Source: Shigella phage ESh24. Taken from it: a stretch of 64,000 nucleotides of DNA. The translations under genes were made by a program, and so were the position numbers. The notes under the pieces are model-generated. The model worked only from the letters and a program-made list of their open reading frames with translations, ran no database searches and had not been told where the DNA came from. Each line of letters begins with the position of its first letter. The stretch's first letter is position 1. Positions 5,847-62,534 of the stretch are shown here, one piece after another. The DNA lies in sequence record ON528734; one strand, given 5' to 3'.

Positions 5847-5996
5847 ATGACGTTAGAAGAGGCTAAAGCAAAAGCAAATGAAGCAATGGATTTGCTTCTT
5901 AAAATCGGCAGTAAAATGATGGAAGAAAATGAGAAATATATCCAGGAAAACAAAATTCCCGATGGTCCATTAGTAGGCAAAAGGAAATCACATGAT
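5847..5996 (+). CDS. hypothetical small protein
   Basis: 49-codon ORF filling the gap between flanking ORFs; below track cutoff. Confidence 0.3.
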
Positions 5997-6462
5997 TGAA
6001 GTAGCAAAATTATATTCAATAGAATTTATGTCTAAAGAAGGTAAATCAGTAAATACACTTGATAAAAAATGCTCATTAATTATTCCTTTAGCAGAAAATC
6101 CGGATATTTTAATTAAAGATATAAAAGAAAGAAAATATCCAGAAAATGTTATTCTAATTATAAAGCATACTGAAGATATTTTGCAAAATACAGATTCACC
6201 ATTTTCTTCTTCTGAAGCTTTAACTATTAAAGGCTATAAAAGAGCTCATGAATATGGTCTTTTTGACATGTTTGAAGACGATAAAGTTAAATTAGCGAGT
6301 CAACCTTCTAAAAGTAAAACATTCATTATTGAAGATATTAAAGATATAAATGCATTTGTTAGGATGGTCTGGGCTCATTTTGATGTTGGACTACGCTGGA
6401 GAATGTCCGAAGAAGAAAGAAAGATTGTTGAAGCTAATCGTCAATTTGGTTTTTATCGCTAG
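5992..6462 (+). CDS. hypothetical protein
   Basis: 156-aa ORF. Confidence 0.5.
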
Positions 6463-8813: not shown

Positions 8814-9125
8814 ATGGTTTATGTATATGCGATAGTGTATAGAGATAAGGATGGATTTACGGCACCAGTTCCACTTGATGAACATCGTCCTGCTGTATTT
8901 TTTGAATGGAATATTGCTGATAAAGTATTTACCACTCTTAAAGAGCAGTATCAACTAGCTTTAGGTAAGGGAATTCCAAGATTAGTTGAGACTCCACGTA
9001 AATTTTGGTTTAATAAAATAGAAGTTAAACATGTTAAGCCTGATGTAGACACACAAAGATTATATCAGCGAATTTTAGATACTGGGCGTATTGTTAGTAT
9101 TCCAATTGCAGGGACTTTCCGATGA
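8814..9125 (+). CDS. hypothetical protein (dda.1 position)
   Basis: 103-aa ORF immediately upstream of dda, overlapping starts. Confidence 0.5.
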   Translation: MVYVYAIVYRDKDGFTAPVPLDEHRPAVFFEWNIADKVFTTLKEQYQLALGKGIPRLVETPRKFWFNKIEVKHVKPDVDTQRLYQRILDTGRIVSIPIAGTFR

Positions 9126-10441
9126 CATTTGATGATTTGACCGAAGGCCAGAAAAATGCCTTTAACATTGTTATGAGGGCTATTAAAGAAAAGAAACATC
9201 ATGTAACTATTAATGGACCTGCTGGTACTGGTAAGACTACTCTTACTAAGTTCATCATTGAAGCTTTAATATCTACGGGTGAAACTGGTATTATTTTAGC
9301 AGCTCCTACTCATGCAGCTAAAAAGATTCTTTCAAAACTGTCGGGGAAAGAAGCGAGTACTATTCACAGTATTCTTAAAATTAACCCAGTAACATATGAA
9401 GAAAATGTTCTTTTTGAACAGAAGGAAGTGCCAGATTTAGCTAAATGTAGGGTATTAATCTGCGACGAAGTGTCAATGTATGATAGAAAGCTATTTAAAA
9501 TTCTGCTTTCAACTATCCCGCCGTGGTGTACTATAATTGGAATAGGTGATAATAAGCAAATTAGACCTGTTGACCCAGGAGAAAACACTGCTTATATCAG
9601 TCCATTCTTTACACACAAAGATTTTTATCAGTGTGAACTTACTGAAGTTAAACGCAGTAATGCTCCTATTATTGATGTAGCTACTGATGTTCGCAACGGT
9701 AAGTGGATTTATGATAAAGTTGTTGACGGTCATGGAGTACGTGGATTTACTGGTGATACCGCTTTACGTGATTTTATGGTAAATTATTTTTCAATCGTCA
9801 AATCACTAGATGATTTGTTTGAAAATCGCGTAATGGCATTTACGAATAAATCTGTTGATAAGTTAAATAGCATTATTCGTAAAAAGATTTTTGAAACTGA
9901 TAAAGATTTTATTGTCGGTGAAATTATTGTAATGCAGGAACCATTAATTAAAACATATAAAATTGATGGAAAGCCTGTATCAGAAATTATTTTTAATAAC
10001 GGACAATTAGTTCGTATTATAGAAGCAGAGTATACATCAACATTTGTTAAAGCTCGTGGTGTTCCTGGAGAATATCTAATTCGTCATTGGGATTTAACAG
10101 TAGAAACTTACGGCGATGATGAATATTATCGTGAAAAGATTAAAATAATTTCATCTGATGAAGAGCTGTATAAGTTTAACTTATTTTTAGGTAAAACAGC
10201 AGAAACTTATAAGAACTGGAATAAAGGCGGAAAAGCTCCGTGGAGTGATTTTTGGGATGCTAAATCACAGTTCAGTAAAGTGAAAGCACTTCCTGCATCA
10301 ACATTCCATAAAGCGCAGGGCATGTCTGTAGACCGTGCTTTCATTTATACGCCTTGTATTCATTATGCAGATGCTGAATTGGCTCAACAACTTCTTTATG
10401 TTGGTGTTACCCGTGGTCGTTATGATGTGTTTTATGTATGA
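9122..10441 (+). CDS. dda: Dda SF1B DNA helicase
   Basis: 439 aa; Walker A GPAGTGKTT; length matches T4 Dda. Confidence 0.9.
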   Translation: MTFDDLTEGQKNAFNIVMRAIKEKKHHVTINGPAGTGKTTLTKFIIEALISTGETGIILAAPTHAAKKILSKLSGKEASTIHSILKINPVTYEENVLFEQKEVPDLAKCRVLICDEVSMYDRKLFKILLSTIPPWCTIIGIGDNKQIRPVDPGENTAYISPFFTHKDFYQCELTEVKRSNAPIIDVATDVRNGKWIYDKVVDGHGVRGFTGDTALRDFMVNYFSIVKSLDDLFENRVMAFTNKSVDKLNSIIRKKIFETDKDFIVGEIIVMQEPLIKTYKIDGKPVSEIIFNNGQLVRIIEAEYTSTFVKARGVPGEYLIRHWDLTVETYGDDEYYREKIKIISSDEELYKFNLFLGKTAETYKNWNKGGKAPWSDFWDAKSQFSKVKALPASTFHKAQGMSVDRAFIYTPCIHYADAELAQQLLYVGVTRGRYDVFYV

Positions 10442-25985: not shown

Positions 25986-26281
25986 TGAATATTAAAAAGT
26001 TTCAAATTGATGGAATTATGAATCAAATCCAGGCGCTGGAATATGCCAATAAAATGATGTCAACTAATTGGGGAATTTATACCAATGAACCTGCATTTCA
26101 GTTTTGTGATATGGAATTAACTAAAAAGCTCGTAGGAAAAGATTATGTATGTCCATTTAGTTCTCCAGTAAATGGAATGTTAAAACCTGCTTTACGCGAT
26201 CTTTATATTGCGATGAATGAAGAGATGATAAAAGATCTAAAACGTCAACTGAAGGTAATTCAATTTGGCCAGGGAAATTAA
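25985..26281 (+). CDS. hypothetical protein
   Basis: 98-aa ORF. Confidence 0.5.
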   Translation: MNIKKFQIDGIMNQIQALEYANKMMSTNWGIYTNEPAFQFCDMELTKKLVGKDYVCPFSSPVNGMLKPALRDLYIAMNEEMIKDLKRQLKVIQFGQGN

Positions 26282-26483
26282 TTCAAAATCCGATTATTTT
26301 AATTCTCTCAATGATAAAGATAAAAATCTAATACGGCATTTTATTGTTGAGATGGGATATACTGACACACGTGATTTAAGAGAACATATATTTGAATGTG
26401 GTGTAGCTAAAAAGTTTTCATTCACATGCAAATGTTTGAGAGAGGTAATTCAGCACTATGAACAATTTAGTCGCAAAACATAA
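26265..26483 (+). CDS. hypothetical protein (start uncertain, TTG or internal ATG)
   Basis: 72-codon ORF from TTG; ATG at 26352 would give 43 aa. Confidence 0.3.
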   Translation: MAREINSKSDYFNSLNDKDKNLIRHFIVEMGYTDTRDLREHIFECGVAKKFSFTCKCLREVIQHYEQFSRKT

Positions 26484-26566
26484 TTTTAATAAAGCTTCTG
26501 TCCATAAAGATAAGAAGAAAGCGTTTAAAGAATCTAATCGCAAACAGAAACATAAGGGGAAGGTCT

Positions 26567-26846
26567 ATGATTATTGATTCTCAATCTGTGGTTCAATATA
26601 CAATCAAAATTGATATTCTAGAAAAGCTATATAAGTTTTCTACCAAATTTATACCATTCAATTGTTAATGAATTAGTTGAAGAATTACATCTTGAGAATA
26701 ACGATTTCTTGATTGGAACTTATAAAGACCTCTCAAAAGCAGGATATTTTTACGTAATTCCAGCTCCAGGAAAAAGTATTGATGATATATTAAAAACTAT
26801 AATGATTTACGTCCATGATTACGAAATTGAAGATTATTTCGAATGA
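26567..26846 (+). pseudogene. arn: arn-like acidic ORF interrupted by a +1 frame break
   Basis: ATG 26567 with RBS AAGGGGAAGG; frame stops after 33 codons at 26666-26668 while the +1 frame continues 60 more codons to TGA 26844-26846; combined about 92 aa. Confidence 0.4.
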
Positions 26847-26995
26847 GTCATAATCTTGAAAAGGTAATCGAGCACAATGTAGCTCAGGAACGTGAGTCGT
26901 TCAAGGAATTCGTAGAAAAAATTTTTGAAGAAAATAACACAGACCAGTTTACAAATCAAGCGTCTGATGATATTATAACAAAGTCAACTAATTGA
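26843..26995 (+). CDS. hypothetical small acidic protein
   Basis: 50 codons immediately upstream of asiA. Confidence 0.35.
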   Translation: MSHNLEKVIEHNVAQERESFKEFVEKIFEENNTDQFTNQASDDIITKSTN

Positions 26996-27007
26996 GTGGT
27001 ATAGTTA

Positions 27008-40145: not shown

Positions 40146-41054
40146 ATGTTTAAACGTAAATCTACTGCTGAACTCGCTGCACAAATGGCTAAACTGGCTG
40201 GAAATAAAGGTGGTTTTTCTTCTGAAGATAAAGGCGAGTGGAAACTGAAACTCGATAATGCGGGTAATGGTCAAGCAGTAATTCGTTTTCTTCCGTCTAA
40301 AAATGATGAACAAGCACCATTCGCAATTCTTGTAAATCACGGTTTCAAGAAAAATGGTAAATGGTATATTGAAAACTGTTCATCTACCCACGGTGATTAC
40401 GATTCTTGTCCAGTATGTCAGTATATCAGTAAAAATGATCTGTACAACACTGACAATAAAGAGTACAGTCTTGTTAAACGTAAAACTTCTTACTGGGCTA
40501 ACATTCTTGTTGTAAAAGACCCAGCTGCTCCAGAAAACGAAGGTAAAGTATTTAAATATCGTTTCGGTAAGAAAATCTGGGATAAAATCAACGCAATGAT
40601 TGCAGTTGATGTTGAAATGGGTGAAACTCCGGTTGATGTAACTTGTCCGTGGGAAGGTGCTAACTTTGTACTGAAAGTTAAACAAGTTTCTGGATTTAGT
40701 AACTACGACGAATCTAAATTCCTGAATCAATCTGCGATTCCAAACATTGATGATGAATCTTTCCAGAAAGAACTGTTCGAACAAATGGTTGACCTTTCTG
40801 AAATGACTTCTAAAGATAAATTCAAATCGTTTGAAGAACTAAGCACTAAGTTCAGTCAAGTTATGGGAACTGCTGCTATGGGTGGTGCCGCAGCAACTGC
40901 CGCTAAGAAAGCTGATAAAGTTGCTGATGATTTGGATGCATTCAATGTTGATGACTTCAAAACAAAAACTGAAGATGATTTTATGAGCTCAAGCTCTGGC
41001 AGTTCATCTAGTGCTGATGACACGGACCTGGATGACCTTTTGAATGACCTTTAA
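40146..41054 (+). CDS. 32: single-stranded DNA-binding protein gp32
   Basis: [17 protein letters not shown]..., Zn-binding Cys/His, acidic C-tail; T4 gp32. Confidence 0.95.
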
Positions 41055-53448: not shown

Positions 53449-54669
<1,221 letters not shown>

Positions 54670-54670
<1 letters not shown>

Positions 54671-58460: not shown

Positions 58461-58475
58461 GTTGAGGACTCCTTC

Positions 58476-58499
58476 GGGAGTCCTTTTTTATTTTCCAAA
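58476..58499 (+). terminator. intrinsic terminator (same hairpin as after soc)
   Basis: GGACTCCTTCGGGAGTCC + TTTTTTATTTT. Confidence 0.7.
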
Positions 58500-58513: not shown

Positions 58514-58546
58514 GTTTACAGTATGGTTCCTTTGTGATAGTATTAT
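58514..58546 (+). promoter_or_regulatory. T4-type early promoter
   Basis: GTTTAC 58514-58519, TAGTATTAT -10 region. Confidence 0.45.
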
Positions 58547-58596
58547 CTTACACAAACAAAAGAAAAGGGCTTCGGCCCCTTACTGAGGAAAATATT

Positions 58597-58884
58597 ATGT
58601 TTATGACTACTTATTTTGATACCCGTAAAAATTTCTGTGAAGTGGTTTTCTCAAAGGCGCCTAAAGACCTTCCTGCTCATTTGCAACCTACCAGTGAATC
58701 GATTAAAAATTACGTTGATGTGGTTTGTCCTTTAGAATTCCGTACAGTAAATGGGCGTGATACTTTAGCTATCACTAAACTCAATCGTGAAATTGACATT
58801 GACCCTTCAATTGCGAGTGAAATTAACATTTCTGATATTGGCGGTGGTAATGTTAAATCACACGGCTTTCAGATGAGGTTCTAA
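58597..58884 (+). CDS. hypothetical protein
   Basis: 95 aa from ATG 58597, RBS TGAGGAAAA, preceded by GGGCTTCGGCCC hairpin. Confidence 0.45.
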   Translation: MFMTTYFDTRKNFCEVVFSKAPKDLPAHLQPTSESIKNYVDVVCPLEFRTVNGRDTLAITKLNREIDIDPSIASEINISDIGGGNVKSHGFQMRF

Positions 58885-59081
58885 TGAAATTCTTTTTAGG
58901 TCAAACTGTTGAATTAAAGGGAGTTGGTATACCTGGATTAATTTCTAAGGTTCTACCTCCATTTAAATGGAGTGGTATTCAAATAAAAGAGGCTTATATT
59001 GTTTCCTGGGTAGATGGAAATGAAGACCTTCGCATGGGTGATGAATTATCTCCTATTTACGGATTAAAGGAATTAGTATGA
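58884..59081 (+). CDS. hypothetical protein
   Basis: 65-aa ORF. Confidence 0.4.
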   Translation: MKFFLGQTVELKGVGIPGLISKVLPPFKWSGIQIKEAYIVSWVDGNEDLRMGDELSPIYGLKELV

Positions 59082-59284
59082 ATATAATTAATAAGATTTT
59101 TGGAATTCAGTACATTAAGGTCACATATAAAGTAACAGATAAAAATCCATATACTGATGAACATGAAGAACCACGAGTTGAGTCTGTTATATTAGAAAAG
59201 GACCCTAACTGGCCAGTTGAATTTCGTCTTCCTTGCTATGGTCATTGGGCTGATGTTGAAATTATAAGTATTGAAAATGCCTGA
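59078..59284 (+). CDS. hypothetical protein
   Basis: 68-aa ORF. Confidence 0.4.
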   Translation: MNIINKIFGIQYIKVTYKVTDKNPYTDEHEEPRVESVILEKDPNWPVEFRLPCYGHWADVEIISIENA

Positions 59285-59735
59285 GTTAGAGATTAGAAGC
59301 AATTTTAGGTGGCCATCATGTGCATTAAGTAATTTCGCCCAATGGCCTTTCGTTATGGATGGTATTCAATTTGGAGGTCTTGAAGGATTCCTCCAAGGAT
59401 GCAAGGTGAAAAATGTTGAACAACAACGTCGTATATTTGGGTTATCTGGGCTTGCCGCCCAACAAGCTGGAAGGTCTTATGCTAGAGCTCAGGACCGTGG
59501 GACCCTCTTCTGGCTTGGAGTTCCGTTTTCAAGATACTCACCAGCGTGGAAAGAGTTGTACACAAATGCATATTTTGAAGCAGCGATTCAAAACAAGGGT
59601 TTTCGTGATGCATTACAAGCCTCTAAAGGAAAAATTTTGAAGCATAGCATGGCTAGTGGTCTAACAAAAGATGATACAATACTAACCGAAGCTGAATTTA
59701 TTGATGTGTTAAACCTATTAAGAGACTCTCTATGA
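59271..59735 (+). CDS. hypothetical protein (30.3 position)
   Basis: 154-aa ORF. Confidence 0.5.
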   Translation: MKMPELEIRSNFRWPSCALSNFAQWPFVMDGIQFGGLEGFLQGCKVKNVEQQRRIFGLSGLAAQQAGRSYARAQDRGTLFWLGVPFSRYSPAWKELYTNAYFEAAIQNKGFRDALQASKGKILKHSMASGLTKDDTILTEAEFIDVLNLLRDSL

Positions 59736-60571
59736 AGCCTACTATTTTAACTGATATTGATGGAGTATGTTTAAGCTGGCAATCAGGCCTTCCTTATTTT
59801 GCTCAGAAATATAATCTTCCGTTGGAACATATTTTAAAAATGATCCAAGATGAGAAATTTATTTCTCCTGGTAAGCTCTTTAATTGCGATGAAGAACTTG
59901 GTGTTAAATTAATCGAAAAGTATAATCGTTCAGATTTTATTCGTTACTTGTCTCCATATAAAGATGCCCTGTGTGTAATTAATAAATTAAAAGAAGATTA
60001 TAATTTTGTAGCTGTTACAGCATTGGGTGATTCTATTGACGCTCTGTTGAATCGTCAATTTAATTTGAATGCTCTTTTTCCTGGTGCCTTCTCAGAAGTA
60101 ATGATGTGTGGTCATGATTCTTCAAAAGAAGAGTTATTCAAAAAGGCAAAAGAGAAATATAACGTAATTTGTTATATTGACGATCTCGCTCACCACTGCG
60201 ACCACGCGAGTGAAATATTAAATGTTCCTGTTTATTGGATGGCTCGAGGGGAGCGTGACAGTATTCCAAAAACTGCGCAGCGAGTTTATACATGGAATGA
60301 TGTAGAGAATAAGCTTTTTCCATCGAAGGAAAATAAAGAAAGTTTTGATAGTGAAAAAGCTATAAAAGATTTAATTGAGAAGATGGTTAAAAACGATTCT
60401 TTTCCTTGGAACACTACCTGGAGAACGCCTGGATTTAATCCTTATAATCATCCATATCATCCATATCAGACACATCCATTTCAGACATGGAACTATATTA
60501 AACCTGGTGGCATAGAGTATTTGTATAATAGACCTACTGGTGGTGATAATATTTTCCAAGGAGCATTCTAA
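59732..60571 (+). CDS. HAD-superfamily hydrolase-like protein with His/Pro/aromatic-rich C-terminal tail (30.2 position)
   Basis: 279 aa; N-terminal ILTDIDGV (HAD motif I DxDG); tail PYNHPYHPYQTHPFQTWNY. Confidence 0.55.
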   Translation: MKPTILTDIDGVCLSWQSGLPYFAQKYNLPLEHILKMIQDEKFISPGKLFNCDEELGVKLIEKYNRSDFIRYLSPYKDALCVINKLKEDYNFVAVTALGDSIDALLNRQFNLNALFPGAFSEVMMCGHDSSKEELFKKAKEKYNVICYIDDLAHHCDHASEILNVPVYWMARGERDSIPKTAQRVYTWNDVENKLFPSKENKESFDSEKAIKDLIEKMVKNDSFPWNTTWRTPGFNPYNHPYHPYQTHPFQTWNYIKPGGIEYLYNRPTGGDNIFQGAF

Positions 60572-60840
60572 TGTTTGTTGTTCACACTATTTATGAAAAT
60601 GAAGGTAATACTACACGTGATTACGGTCACGTAAATCAATTTTTTAGATGCAATCCAGAATTCCGAGCTCAAAAAGACGAACGAATTTTTAAAAAATGTG
60701 TAGAGCAAGGTTTCATTTACGTTAAGCACTGGATGCAAGGAAATAAAGTTAGAACTACATATCATAAGTCTTTGCCTGAGCTTAATGATGAATTGATTTA
60801 TAATAGAGCTGTAAACCAAACTCTAAAGGATGAACAATGA
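60571..60840 (+). CDS. hypothetical protein (30.1 position)
   Basis: 89-aa ORF. Confidence 0.45.
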   Translation: MFVVHTIYENEGNTTRDYGHVNQFFRCNPEFRAQKDERIFKKCVEQGFIYVKHWMQGNKVRTTYHKSLPELNDELIYNRAVNQTLKDEQ

Positions 60841-62300
60841 TTCTTAAAATTCTGAACGAAATAGCATCTATTGGTTCAACTAAGCAGAAGCAAGCAATTC
60901 TTGAAAAGAATAAAGATAATGAATTGCTTAAACGAGTATATCGTCTGACTTATTCTCGTGGGTTACAGTATTATATCAAGAAATGGCCTAAACCGGGTAT
61001 TGCTACCCAGAGTTTTGGAATGTTGACTCTTACCGATATGCTTGACTTCATTGAATTCACGTTAGCTACTCGGAAATTGACTGGAAATGCGGCAATTGAG
61101 GAATTAACTGGATATATTACTGACGGTAAAAAAGATGATGTTGAAGTTTTGCGTCGGGTGATGATGCGAGACCTTGAATGCGGTGCTTCAGTATCTATTG
61201 CGAACAAAGTTTGGCCAGGTTTAATTCCTGAACAACCTCAAATGCTTGCAAGTTCTTATGATGAAAAAGGCATTAATAAGAATATCAAATTTCCAGCCTT
61301 TGCCCAGTTAAAAGCTGATGGAGCTCGGTGCTTTGCTGAAGTCAGAGGTGATGAATTAGATGATGTTCGTCTTTTATCACGAGCTGGTAATGAATATCTA
61401 GGATTAGATCTTCTCAAGGAAGAGTTAATCAAAATGACTGCAGAAGCTCGTCAGATTCATCCAGAAGGTGTGTTAATTGATGGCGAATTGGTATACCATG
61501 AGCAAGTTGAAAAGGAACCAGAAGGCCTAGATTTTCTTTTTGATGCTTATCCTGAAATTAGTAAAGCTAAAGAATTCGCCGAAGTAGCTGAATCACGTAC
61601 TGCATCTAATGGCATCGCCAATAAATCTTTAAAGGGAACTATTTCAGAAAAAGAAGCTCAATGCATGAAGTTTCAGGTCTGGGACTATGTTCCATTAGTA
61701 GAAATATATGGTCTTCCTGCATTTCGTTTAAAGTATGATGCACGTTTTTCTAAACTAGAACAAATGACATCAGGCTATGATAAAGTAATTTTAATTGAAA
61801 ACCAGCTAGTAAATAACCTAGATGAAGCTAAGGTAATTTACAAAAAGTATATTGACCAAGGTCTTGAAGGTATTATTCTCAAAAATATCGATGGATTATG
61901 GGAAAATGCTCGTTCAAAAAATCTTTATAAATTTAAAGAAGTAATTGATGTTGATTTAAAAATTGTAGGAATTTATCCGCACCGTAAAGACCCTACTAAA
62001 GCAGGTGGATTTATTCTTGAGTCAGAGTGTGGAAAAATTAAAGTAAATGCTGGTTCAGGCTTAAAAGATAAAGCCGGTGTAAAATCGCATGAACTTGACC
62101 GTACTCGCATTATGGAAAACCAAAATTATTATATTGGAAAAATTCTAGAGTGCGAATGCAACGGTTGGTTAAAATCTGATGGCCGCACTGATTACGTTAA
62201 ATTATTTCTTCCGATTGCGATTCGTTTACGTGAAGATAAAACTAAAGCTAATACATTCGAGGATGTATTTGGTGATTTTCATGAGGTAACTGGTCTATGA
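60837..62300 (+). CDS. 30: ATP-dependent DNA ligase gp30
   Basis: 487 aa; adenylation motif KADGAR (motif I); T4 ligase length. Confidence 0.95.
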   Translation: MILKILNEIASIGSTKQKQAILEKNKDNELLKRVYRLTYSRGLQYYIKKWPKPGIATQSFGMLTLTDMLDFIEFTLATRKLTGNAAIEELTGYITDGKKDDVEVLRRVMMRDLECGASVSIANKVWPGLIPEQPQMLASSYDEKGINKNIKFPAFAQLKADGARCFAEVRGDELDDVRLLSRAGNEYLGLDLLKEELIKMTAEARQIHPEGVLIDGELVYHEQVEKEPEGLDFLFDAYPEISKAKEFAEVAESRTASNGIANKSLKGTISEKEAQCMKFQVWDYVPLVEIYGLPAFRLKYDARFSKLEQMTSGYDKVILIENQLVNNLDEAKVIYKKYIDQGLEGIILKNIDGLWENARSKNLYKFKEVIDVDLKIVGIYPHRKDPTKAGGFILESECGKIKVNAGSGLKDKAGVKSHELDRTRIMENQNYYIGKILECECNGWLKSDGRTDYVKLFLPIAIRLREDKTKANTFEDVFGDFHEVTGL

Positions 62301-62485
62301 AAGCTTACTTAGAAACAATTGTCATTGCTCAAAAAGAAGGTGGAGATGTTTCTACTTCTGTATCACAAGTCATTCTCGAATTTGTAGATGCATATGCTTA
62401 TAATAAATTCACAGAAACATTTGATGCCTATGAAAAAGGTCCAAAGTTTGAAATATACCGTACTCTCTTACCACTAGATTACTAA
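62297..62485 (+). CDS. hypothetical protein
   Basis: 62-aa ORF followed by AAGGCCTTCGGGCCTT hairpin. Confidence 0.4.
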   Translation: MKAYLETIVIAQKEGGDVSTSVSQVILEFVDAYAYNKFTETFDAYEKGPKFEIYRTLLPLDY

Positions 62486-62501
62486 AGGCCTTCGGGCCTT
62501 T
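62485..62501 (+). terminator. intrinsic terminator hairpin (same sequence as at 14685)
   Basis: AAGGCCTTCGGGCCTT + T. Confidence 0.6.
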
Positions 62502-62534
62502 AATTTTATAAATAGAATAAACACTAGAGAGGAT

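Follow-up and report, generated by a model that had tools for sequence, protein, structure and literature searches.

Gene 30.2 of Shigella phage ESh24 probably encodes a Mg2+-dependent HAD phosphomonoesterase of the NT5C lineage, with a (d)NMP as the likely substrate and a predicted disordered tail that most likely serves docking or localisation outside catalysis. The window, i.e. the whole stretch of DNA that was analysed (64,000 nucleotides, sequence record ON528734), contains at 59732..60571 on the + strand one long open reading frame (ORF) with an ATG start, 279 amino acids and a TAA stop. From its motifs and its predicted fold we conclude that the product, gp30.2, is a catalytically intact HAD phosphatase in a divergent branch of the NT5C-like lineage whose members are mostly viral, the activity itself being predicted. 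The gene is already catalogued; what is new here is the firm placement of its fold and family as NT5C-like, the anatomy of the tail and the negative result of a test for clamp binding. The findings are unsurprising to specialists.

The ORF and the genes that are referred to below are as follows.

Upstream of 30.2: 30.3, matching Pfam Phage_30_3 (E=5e-70).
59732..60571, + strand: 30.2.
Downstream of 30.2: 30.1, matching DUF3045 (E=6e-63).
60837-62300: DNA ligase gp30, after 30.1 and two genes downstream of 30.2.
53762-54670: PseT, matching HAD_PNKP (E=2e-58).

On sequence grounds the ORF is the ortholog of T4 gene 30.2, because identity is high and the neighbours 30.3, 30.1 and ligase are the same; the initial annotation had proposed a comparison with the T4 30.2 product, and the two prove to be orthologs. 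The nucleotide identity is 94-97% to Tequatrovirus phages, the genus to which the window thus belongs, and 94% to T4, where the gene has the same neighbours (30.3, 30.1 and gene 30) and the same tail. The differences from T4 are allelic only, such as NPYNPYHPY in T4 where the window has NPYNHPYHPY. It was found by megablast that the ORF is present in 617 phage records with identities up to 97.3%, some of which name it gp30.2, and by tblastn that 1437 phage records from across the Straboviridae contain homologs, among them phages of Klebsiella, Aeromonas, Acinetobacter and Vibrio. The dN/dS values of the core are 0.011 and 0.06, indicating strong purifying selection. With so many phage records and such selection on the core, the ORF is a genuine gene rather than a frame that is open by chance. 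An exhaustive profile search yielded a family of 1288 cluster representatives (about 1300, defined at 50% identity), mostly 190-215 aa in length. Among cellular sequences, a scan of genome contigs gave a single locus, in a Flagellimonas assembly, and this locus is probably a T4-like phage contig. The gene thus counts as one of the more widely retained accessory genes of T4-type phages and its core is very strongly constrained, yet it has neither an assigned function nor a Pfam model: gp30.2 falls in PHROG 420, which is listed as 'unknown function', a few records already carry the name putative phosphatase or HAD-like hydrolase, and a literature search returned no biochemical or experimental characterisation of gp30.2.

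Two alignments were used for the analysis of the core, one of 55 close homologs (A1) and another of 44 distant relatives at 22-45% identity (A2). The features of the core, together with the helix that follows it, are listed here.

59732..60316, + strand: HAD catalytic core and cap, residues 1-195 (AlphaFold pLDDT mostly >90, Rossmann-like strand order).
59753..59764, + strand: HAD motif I, D8-I-D10-G11 (predicted nucleophile D8, predicted acid/base D10).
59777..59989, + strand: helical C1-type cap, residues 16-86, beginning with the near-invariant W16-Q-S-G-L.
60017..60019, + strand: HAD motif II, T96, at the end of strand 91-96.
60125..60127, + strand: HAD motif III, K132, invariant in A1 and A2.
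60179..60184, + strand: HAD motif IV, D150-D151, at the end of strand 145-150.
60329..60391, + strand: predicted helix linking core to tail, residues 200-220 (AlphaFold).

The initial annotation had taken ILTDIDGV (residues 5-12) for HAD motif I and the protein for a HAD-like hydrolase, and both readings hold. The DxD lies at the end of strand 4-7, and D8 and D10 are invariant in both alignments (n=55 and n=44), as is K132. In addition, D151 shows no variation in A2 and at least 90% conservation in A1, G11 is invariant in A1 and near-invariant in A2, and T96 and D150 are each conserved in at least 90% of A1. Trp16, at the start of the cap, is conserved in at least 90% of the relatives in A1 and A2. 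R108, invariant in A2, and N111 are family-specific invariants, and R172 is invariant among the close homologs. The catalytic Asp, whose loss among homologs had been named as the finding that would speak against a HAD enzyme, is conserved down to 22% identity. Structure prediction, the check that had been proposed, gives a confident HAD core with a C1 cap. The AlphaFold2 model, built from the A1 alignment, has a mean pLDDT of 83.8 and exceeds 90 for about 187 residues, and its strands 4-7, 91-96, 120-125 and 145-150 end in the four HAD motifs. Motifs I, II, III and IV are therefore all found together with a predicted Rossmannoid fold, as expected of a member of the superfamily. When the model was compared with the PDB by Foldseek, 114 matches were obtained at E<=0.001, with HAD enzymes at E values of about 1e-8, and all of the 50 matches listed among these 114 are HAD-superfamily enzymes or HAD-derived designs.

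Within the superfamily, gp30.2 itself is not assigned to a family by a direct search. It has no match at a meaningful E-value in Pfam or NCBIfam, where only noise was returned, e.g. thiamin pyrophosphokinase at E=0.02-0.09, and such an assignment was discarded; PADLOC gave no match to gp30.2 either, and Pfam NT5C (PF06941) did not match it at E<=1, so that its score stays below the gathering score of that family. The link to NT5C appears when the family is considered as a whole, and for gp30.2 it is a link at the level of profile and structure only, at 13-20% identity. In A2, 13 of the 44 members match Pfam NT5C at E<=0.01, the best at E=4e-10, and the relative P0170 passes the PF06941 gathering score with 26.2 bits against a cutoff of 24.8. 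The A2 profile matches 3bwv, the deoxyribonucleotidase homolog from S. epidermidis, over its full length (E=1.5e-5 over 198 positions). The highest target-normalised TM-scores in the Foldseek search of the PDB, 0.64-0.69, belong to the cytosolic and mitochondrial 5'(3')-deoxyribonucleotidases cdN and mdN and to 3bwv, with 2jao and 2i7d among the matching entries, giving a full-length similarity in profile and structure to solved NT5C members; the sole match in a sequence search of the PDB is mouse cdN, 2jao; and structural neighbours in BFVD bear names such as 5' nucleotidase and deoxyribonucleotidase. The earlier suggestion of a phosphatase or nucleotidase is borne out to this extent, that the nearest relatives by PDB, profile, NT5C and BFVD comparison are nucleotidases and the activity is predicted from them. 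In detail, DGVCLSW-QSGL of gp30.2 aligns with DGVLADF-ESGL of 2jao, and D8-I-D-G-V...W16 with N-M-D-G-V-L-A-D-F, so that in both proteins an aromatic residue stands 8 positions past the nucleophile. gp30.2 thus has in common with cdN, mdN and 3bwv (NT5C, PF06941) the HAD core and the helical C1 cap, the DxDGV motif I, the aromatic residue at +8 and the S-G-L, whereas the extra helix, the disordered tail and the family-specific R108 and N111 (with R172 in close homologs) set it apart from them.

In the mechanism that we propose, Asp8 would attack the phosphate of the substrate, and an aspartyl-phosphate intermediate would result, as in established HAD chemistry, with Asp10 as general acid/base. 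Thr96 and Lys132 would hold the phosphate, and Asp150 and Asp151 the Mg2+. The helical C1 cap (16-86) would close over a small substrate, with Trp16 taking the base-stacking position. A closed helical cap implies a small substrate, and Trp16 occupies the position of the base-stacking Phe in the cdN and mdN structures; together with the closed cap this points to a nucleoside monophosphate as the substrate class. The likeliest substrates would be nucleoside or deoxynucleoside monophosphates, and gp30.2 would then be a nucleotide-pool enzyme. The HAD family hydrolyses phosphomonoesters, which would make cyclic or signalling nucleotides poor candidate substrates. A functional precedent for this reading is the phage T5 enzyme Dmp (deoxynucleoside-5'-monophosphatase), which is annotated as a dNMP phosphatase and has a DxDG motif I. 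Dmp was considered as a homolog of gp30.2 and rejected, since no homology was detectable between the two beyond motif I (hhalign probability 2.6%); Dmp has no Pfam match. The NT5C-like placement would make gp30.2 a possible catabolic arm of the T4 nucleotide-pool network and, if it is a nucleotidase, it could by analogy form with the phage thymidine kinase a substrate cycle like that of cdN and mdN in mammalian cells.

The genomic position of the gene raises another explanation, that gp30.2 is a nucleic-acid end phosphatase acting on 3' or 5' phosphates of DNA or RNA, i.e. a healing partner of the ligase and a second PseT-like activity. At its start codon 30.2 overlaps the TGA of the upstream 30.3 (ATGA), and at its TAA stop the ATG of the downstream 30.1 (TAATG). 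The gene order 30.3 / 30.2 / 30.1 / DNA ligase is as in T4, the ORFs between 58534 and 62485 are linked into a chain in which stops overlap starts, and terminator-like hairpins at 58464-58485 and 62483-62502 bracket this chain. gp30.2 would accordingly be made from a translationally coupled gene chain running from 30.3 (AdfN) through 30.2 and 30.1 to DNA ligase, and its coupling with the ligase in one transcription unit speaks for an end phosphatase. Weak matches to a PHROG polynucleotide kinase family (E=0.003) and, in one relative, to HAD_PNKP also favour it. Nevertheless, we consider this explanation improbable. HAD enzymes whose substrates are polymer ends generally lack a cap, but the model of gp30.2 shows a closed helical C1 cap like that of small-molecule HADs. 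Moreover, the phage already encodes PseT, as had been pointed out before, and its HAD domain belongs to the subfamily HAD_PNKP. The T4 PseT phosphatase domain shares with gp30.2 the superfamily, the phage and the genomic neighbourhood; its subfamily is different, it is fused to a kinase and its substrates are polynucleotide 3' ends. A comparison of gp30.2 with the PseT of the window shows no collinear similarity, and judged by sequence PseT is not a close paralog of gp30.2.

For the NT5C-like nucleotidase that we favour, the tail most likely lies outside the catalytic unit. Its features are given below.

60392..60568, + strand: predicted disordered tail rich in aromatic residues, Pro and Asn, residues 221-279 (pLDDT about 43-51).
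60419..60445, + strand: tail motif M1, W230-R-T-P-G-F-N-P-Y, in its T4 version.
60447..60487, + strand: DNA tandem repeats with 9-nt and 15-nt units, encoding HPY/HPF repeats (Tandem Repeats Finder).
60512..60526, + strand: I261-E-Y-L-Y, a conservative variant of LDFLF, conserved in 'type A' tails.
60542..60568, + strand: extreme C-terminus G-D-N-I-F-Q-G-A-F, near-identical in the 6 Tequatrovirus tails read.

The last 59 residues of gp30.2 are NDSFPWNTTWRTPGFNPYNHPYHPYQTHPFQTWNYIKPGGIEYLYNRPTGGDNIFQGAF, and the protein ends in ...FPWNTTWRTPGFNPYNHPYHPYQTHPFQTWNYIKPGGIEYLYNRPTGGDNIFQGAF. Residues 221-279 include 17 aromatic/His residues and 8 Pro among the 59, and there are no charged residues from 232 to 256. 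In the AlphaFold2 model the pLDDT falls below 50 in three segments of the tail, 225-235, 240-261 and 270-279. Only enterobacterial T4-like phages have the tail. It is missing from almost all of the best 150 distant representatives out of 1288, and also from some close relatives, e.g. the forms of 202-212 aa. Other genera have different tails, many of which share M1 in the general form W-x-x-P-x-P-S-D-x-[KR]-P-[WY]-[WY]. Type B tails end after M1 (...SDLRAYYG); elsewhere M1 is followed by lineage-specific endings, namely G-T-G-I-E-Y-L-x-x-Q-P-T, ...WTWSINC, ...LLNKVTANDSD and ...ALLGMANLPIITG. The motifs shared among tails are M1 and GIEYL-x-x-QPT. The tail was also considered as a module shared with other proteins, and this was rejected as a profile search with 15 tails gave only two fragments of 64-65 aa. 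A docking role for the tail is plausible because it is disordered and contains short conserved motifs; residues 221-279 most likely form a docking or localisation element for a partner, outside catalysis. No docking partner was identified in this analysis, and such a partner, if found, could tie gp30.2 to processes related to ligase or AdfN.

The gp45 sliding clamp is one candidate partner. According to this explanation, IEYLY (261-265) is a gp45-binding peptide that recruits gp30.2 to replication forks beside ligase; in its wider form, the tail docks the nucleotidase to the replication/repair machinery through IEYLY and gp45, and 30.3-30.2-30.1-ligase is a clamp-associated module for DNA damage and nucleotide sanitation. 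Both forms seem to us unlikely, although several observations speak for them. Binding to gp45 through LDFLF is documented for the T4 ligase loop, with a reported Kd of about 10.7 uM for the loop peptide, and for gp43, and is deduced by sequence for gp33 (PMC6212786); we verified LDFL[FLY] in gp43, gp55 and gp33 and in the ligase of the window. Like the clamp peptides of ligase, gp43, gp33 and gp55, IEYLY is short, combines hydrophobic and acidic residues and lies in a flexible region, and it is the best-conserved part of the type A tails. When a regular expression of conservative residue classes was run over 138 genes, its only matches were gp43, gp55, gp33, ligase, the tail of gp30.2 and a single site inside beta-glucosyltransferase. 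However, this expression was composed after the tail had been seen, and shuffling yields 1.1 chance matches. A position-specific scoring matrix (PSSM) was built from known gp45 binders in a leave-one-phage-out manner and ranks all known binders top; with it, GIEYLY scores only 3.9 bits compared with 15.7-18.7 for true binders and takes rank 100 of 24,732 sites. The gp30.2 tail contains no motif of the LDFL[FLY] or LF[DG]MF type.

Variation among phages also goes against clamp binding, for IEYLY is not conserved across relatives as the clamp peptides are. In phages PEi20 and Cronus, LDFL or LFDMF is retained in gp33, gp55, gp43 and ligase, and the 30.2 tails of these phages end in the unrelated motifs SDLRAYYGGTE and ALLGMANLPIITG. 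Within Tequatrovirus, two alleles follow the repeats of the tail: the first is GGIEYLYNRPTGGDNIFQGAF and the second GDAGYFNR[FL]TSG(SG)DNIFQGAF, the latter in PM108, HY01 and BYEP01. Out of 499 Tequatrovirus records, about 367 share 80% identity or more with the tail of the window, and the IEYLY allele therefore probably predominates. The remaining class, about 132 of the 499, is 60-80% identical over the tail, and in all three records of it that were read AGYF replaces IEYLY. When a degenerate DNA pattern was used to count the alleles of the tail in IMG/VR, it matched 3 times, too few to use. Due to the low PSSM score, the unrelated tails and lack of co-variation in PEi20 and Cronus, and the AGYF class without the motif, clamp binding was rejected as the main explanation of the tail and is kept at a low probability. 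We know of no precedent for a small-molecule phosphatase tethered to a clamp.

The ADP-ribose systems that adjoin 30.2, AdfN/NADAR upstream and Alt downstream of ligase, suggest yet another role, in which gp30.2 would be a metabolite phosphatase for them. It might dephosphorylate products of the ribose-5-phosphate type, and it could be the T-even factor suggested for AdfN. This we hold to be very doubtful. In its favour, the stop of 30.3 overlaps the start of 30.2, 30.3 is AdfN, a NADAR anti-DarTG1 factor, and its authors suggest a possible need for another T-even protein (PMC11825919). However, adfN alone, expressed ectopically, protected RB69 (PMC11825919). The two genes are also separable, as PEi20 and Cronus carry 30.2 without an adjacent 30.3, and among the neighbours of 30.2 in 78 diverse viral contigs only 2 of 136 ORFs are 30.3-like. 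The commonest neighbour family in these contigs is PhoH (8 of the 136 ORFs), and generic ATPases are also frequent; they give no clue to the substrate. In T-even phages, where 30.2 stands beside ligase and AdfN, the context provides no clear clue to the substrate either. On the downstream side, 30.1 (DUF3045) was examined as a functional hint and discarded: its AlphaFold model, of fair quality (pLDDT 83), has no fold match in the PDB, and its putative fusion with 30.2, P0015, was seen on one contig. The fusion joins a tail-less 30.2 core to 30.1, and the contig is a single metagenomic one of 1.4 kb.

The initial annotation had further found that the His/Pro/aromatic tail looks like a metal-binding or protein-docking extension; metal binding is extremely improbable since the His residues are not conserved: the window tail has three His within 11 residues (H240, H243 and H248), but T4 has two and PM108 more, the tails of Mosigvirus, Klebsiella phages, PEi20 and Cronus have few or none at those positions, and the conserved tail positions are W, P and Y. 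The description of the tail as repetitive was right, and the repetition extends to the DNA, where Tandem Repeats Finder detects a 9-nt unit present 2.4 times at 60447-60468 and a 15-nt unit present 2.0 times at 60458-60487. In Tequatrovirus tails the repeat is NPY(Y/H)THPY, with a copy number that depends on the strain: about 1.5 degenerate copies are present in the window and in T4, 2 copies in HY01 and 3 in BYEP01, so that related phages carry 2-3 copies of NPYYTHPY. When the window is compared with PM108, the dN/dS is 0.34 for the tail and 0.011 for the core, from which it follows that the tail is coding and weakly constrained. The tail evolves by tandem-repeat slippage, and it illustrates cleanly how an appendage of a phage protein can do so. 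Beyond the repeats, one of the 6 Tequatrovirus tails read ends in GDNILQGAF.

The gene for the HAD-like protein 30.2 (59732-60571, + strand) lies in a chain of eight ORFs that spans 58534-62485 on the + strand, and stop and start codons overlap along this chain. The chain includes the DNA ligase, is flanked by terminator-like hairpins and looks like a single translationally coupled unit. Its flanks and the two neighbours of 30.2 are as follows.

58464-58485 and 62483-62502, flanking the + strand chain: terminator-like hairpins
59271-59735, +: T4 30.3 (AdfN), a NADAR anti-DarTG1 factor (Pfam Phage_30_3, E=5e-70)
60571-60840, +: 30.1, a DUF3045 protein of 89 aa

The ATG of 30.2 overlaps the TGA stop of 30.3, its upstream neighbour, and it has been suggested that AdfN may require another T-even protein (PMC11825919). 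On the downstream side, the AlphaFold model of 30.1 (pLDDT 83) combines four strands with helices, of which the C-terminal one is long, and its comparison with PDB folds gave no significant match (best E=0.93). A joined form of the two genes was also observed. In P0015 (234-1142 of a contig from Logan SRR21148734), the 30.2 core without the tail is joined to a DUF3045 domain, and motif I reads DIDD, not DIDG. The evidence is one contig of 1378 bp, and the fusion may have arisen through misassembly or an error in sequencing.

Tequatrovirus strains differ in the C-terminal tail of 30.2. The octapeptide NPYYTHPY is present in 1 to 3 copies depending on the strain (BYEP01, HY01, Sf23 and PM108), and the segment after the repeat exists as two distinct alleles, IEYLY versus AGYF. 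As a separate observation, the record of T4 strain 147 (KJ477685.1, 125386-126223) carries no CDS annotation at 30.2, where the reading frame shifts after about codon 131. The frameshift reflects either an error in sequencing or a gene that the phage can do without under laboratory conditions.

Across diverse viral contigs (IMG/VR loci), PhoH is the commonest immediate neighbour of 30.2-family genes, accounting for 8 of the 136 neighbour ORFs, while two neighbours are PHO4 phosphate transporters. A homolog without the tail, with 48% identity, was also seen in the Flagellimonas marina WGS assembly (NZ_JBHSCL010000010.1); this 178-kb contig is probably a T4-like phage genome within a bacterial assembly.

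The position-specific score matrix (PSSM) built from known gp45 sliding-clamp binding motifs also flagged the following sites.

Window 40146-41054: gp32, C-terminal DLDDLL
Window 9122-10441: 439-aa protein, internal SLDDLF
Window 5992-6462: 156-aa protein, GLFDMF
PEi20 locus, 26059-27003: RNase H, N-terminal ELDFLL

Binding of gp45 by RNase H has already been proposed in print, and the putative PEi20 motif fits that proposal. In T4 ligase, the gp45-binding loop is GLDFLF. The same position is occupied by DLFGMF in PEi20 (ligase at 453-1970 of the locus) and by SLDHLF in Cronus (ligase at 960-2459 of the locus), and therefore the position of the clamp-binding loop is conserved while the motif alternates between the T4 type and the RB69 type.
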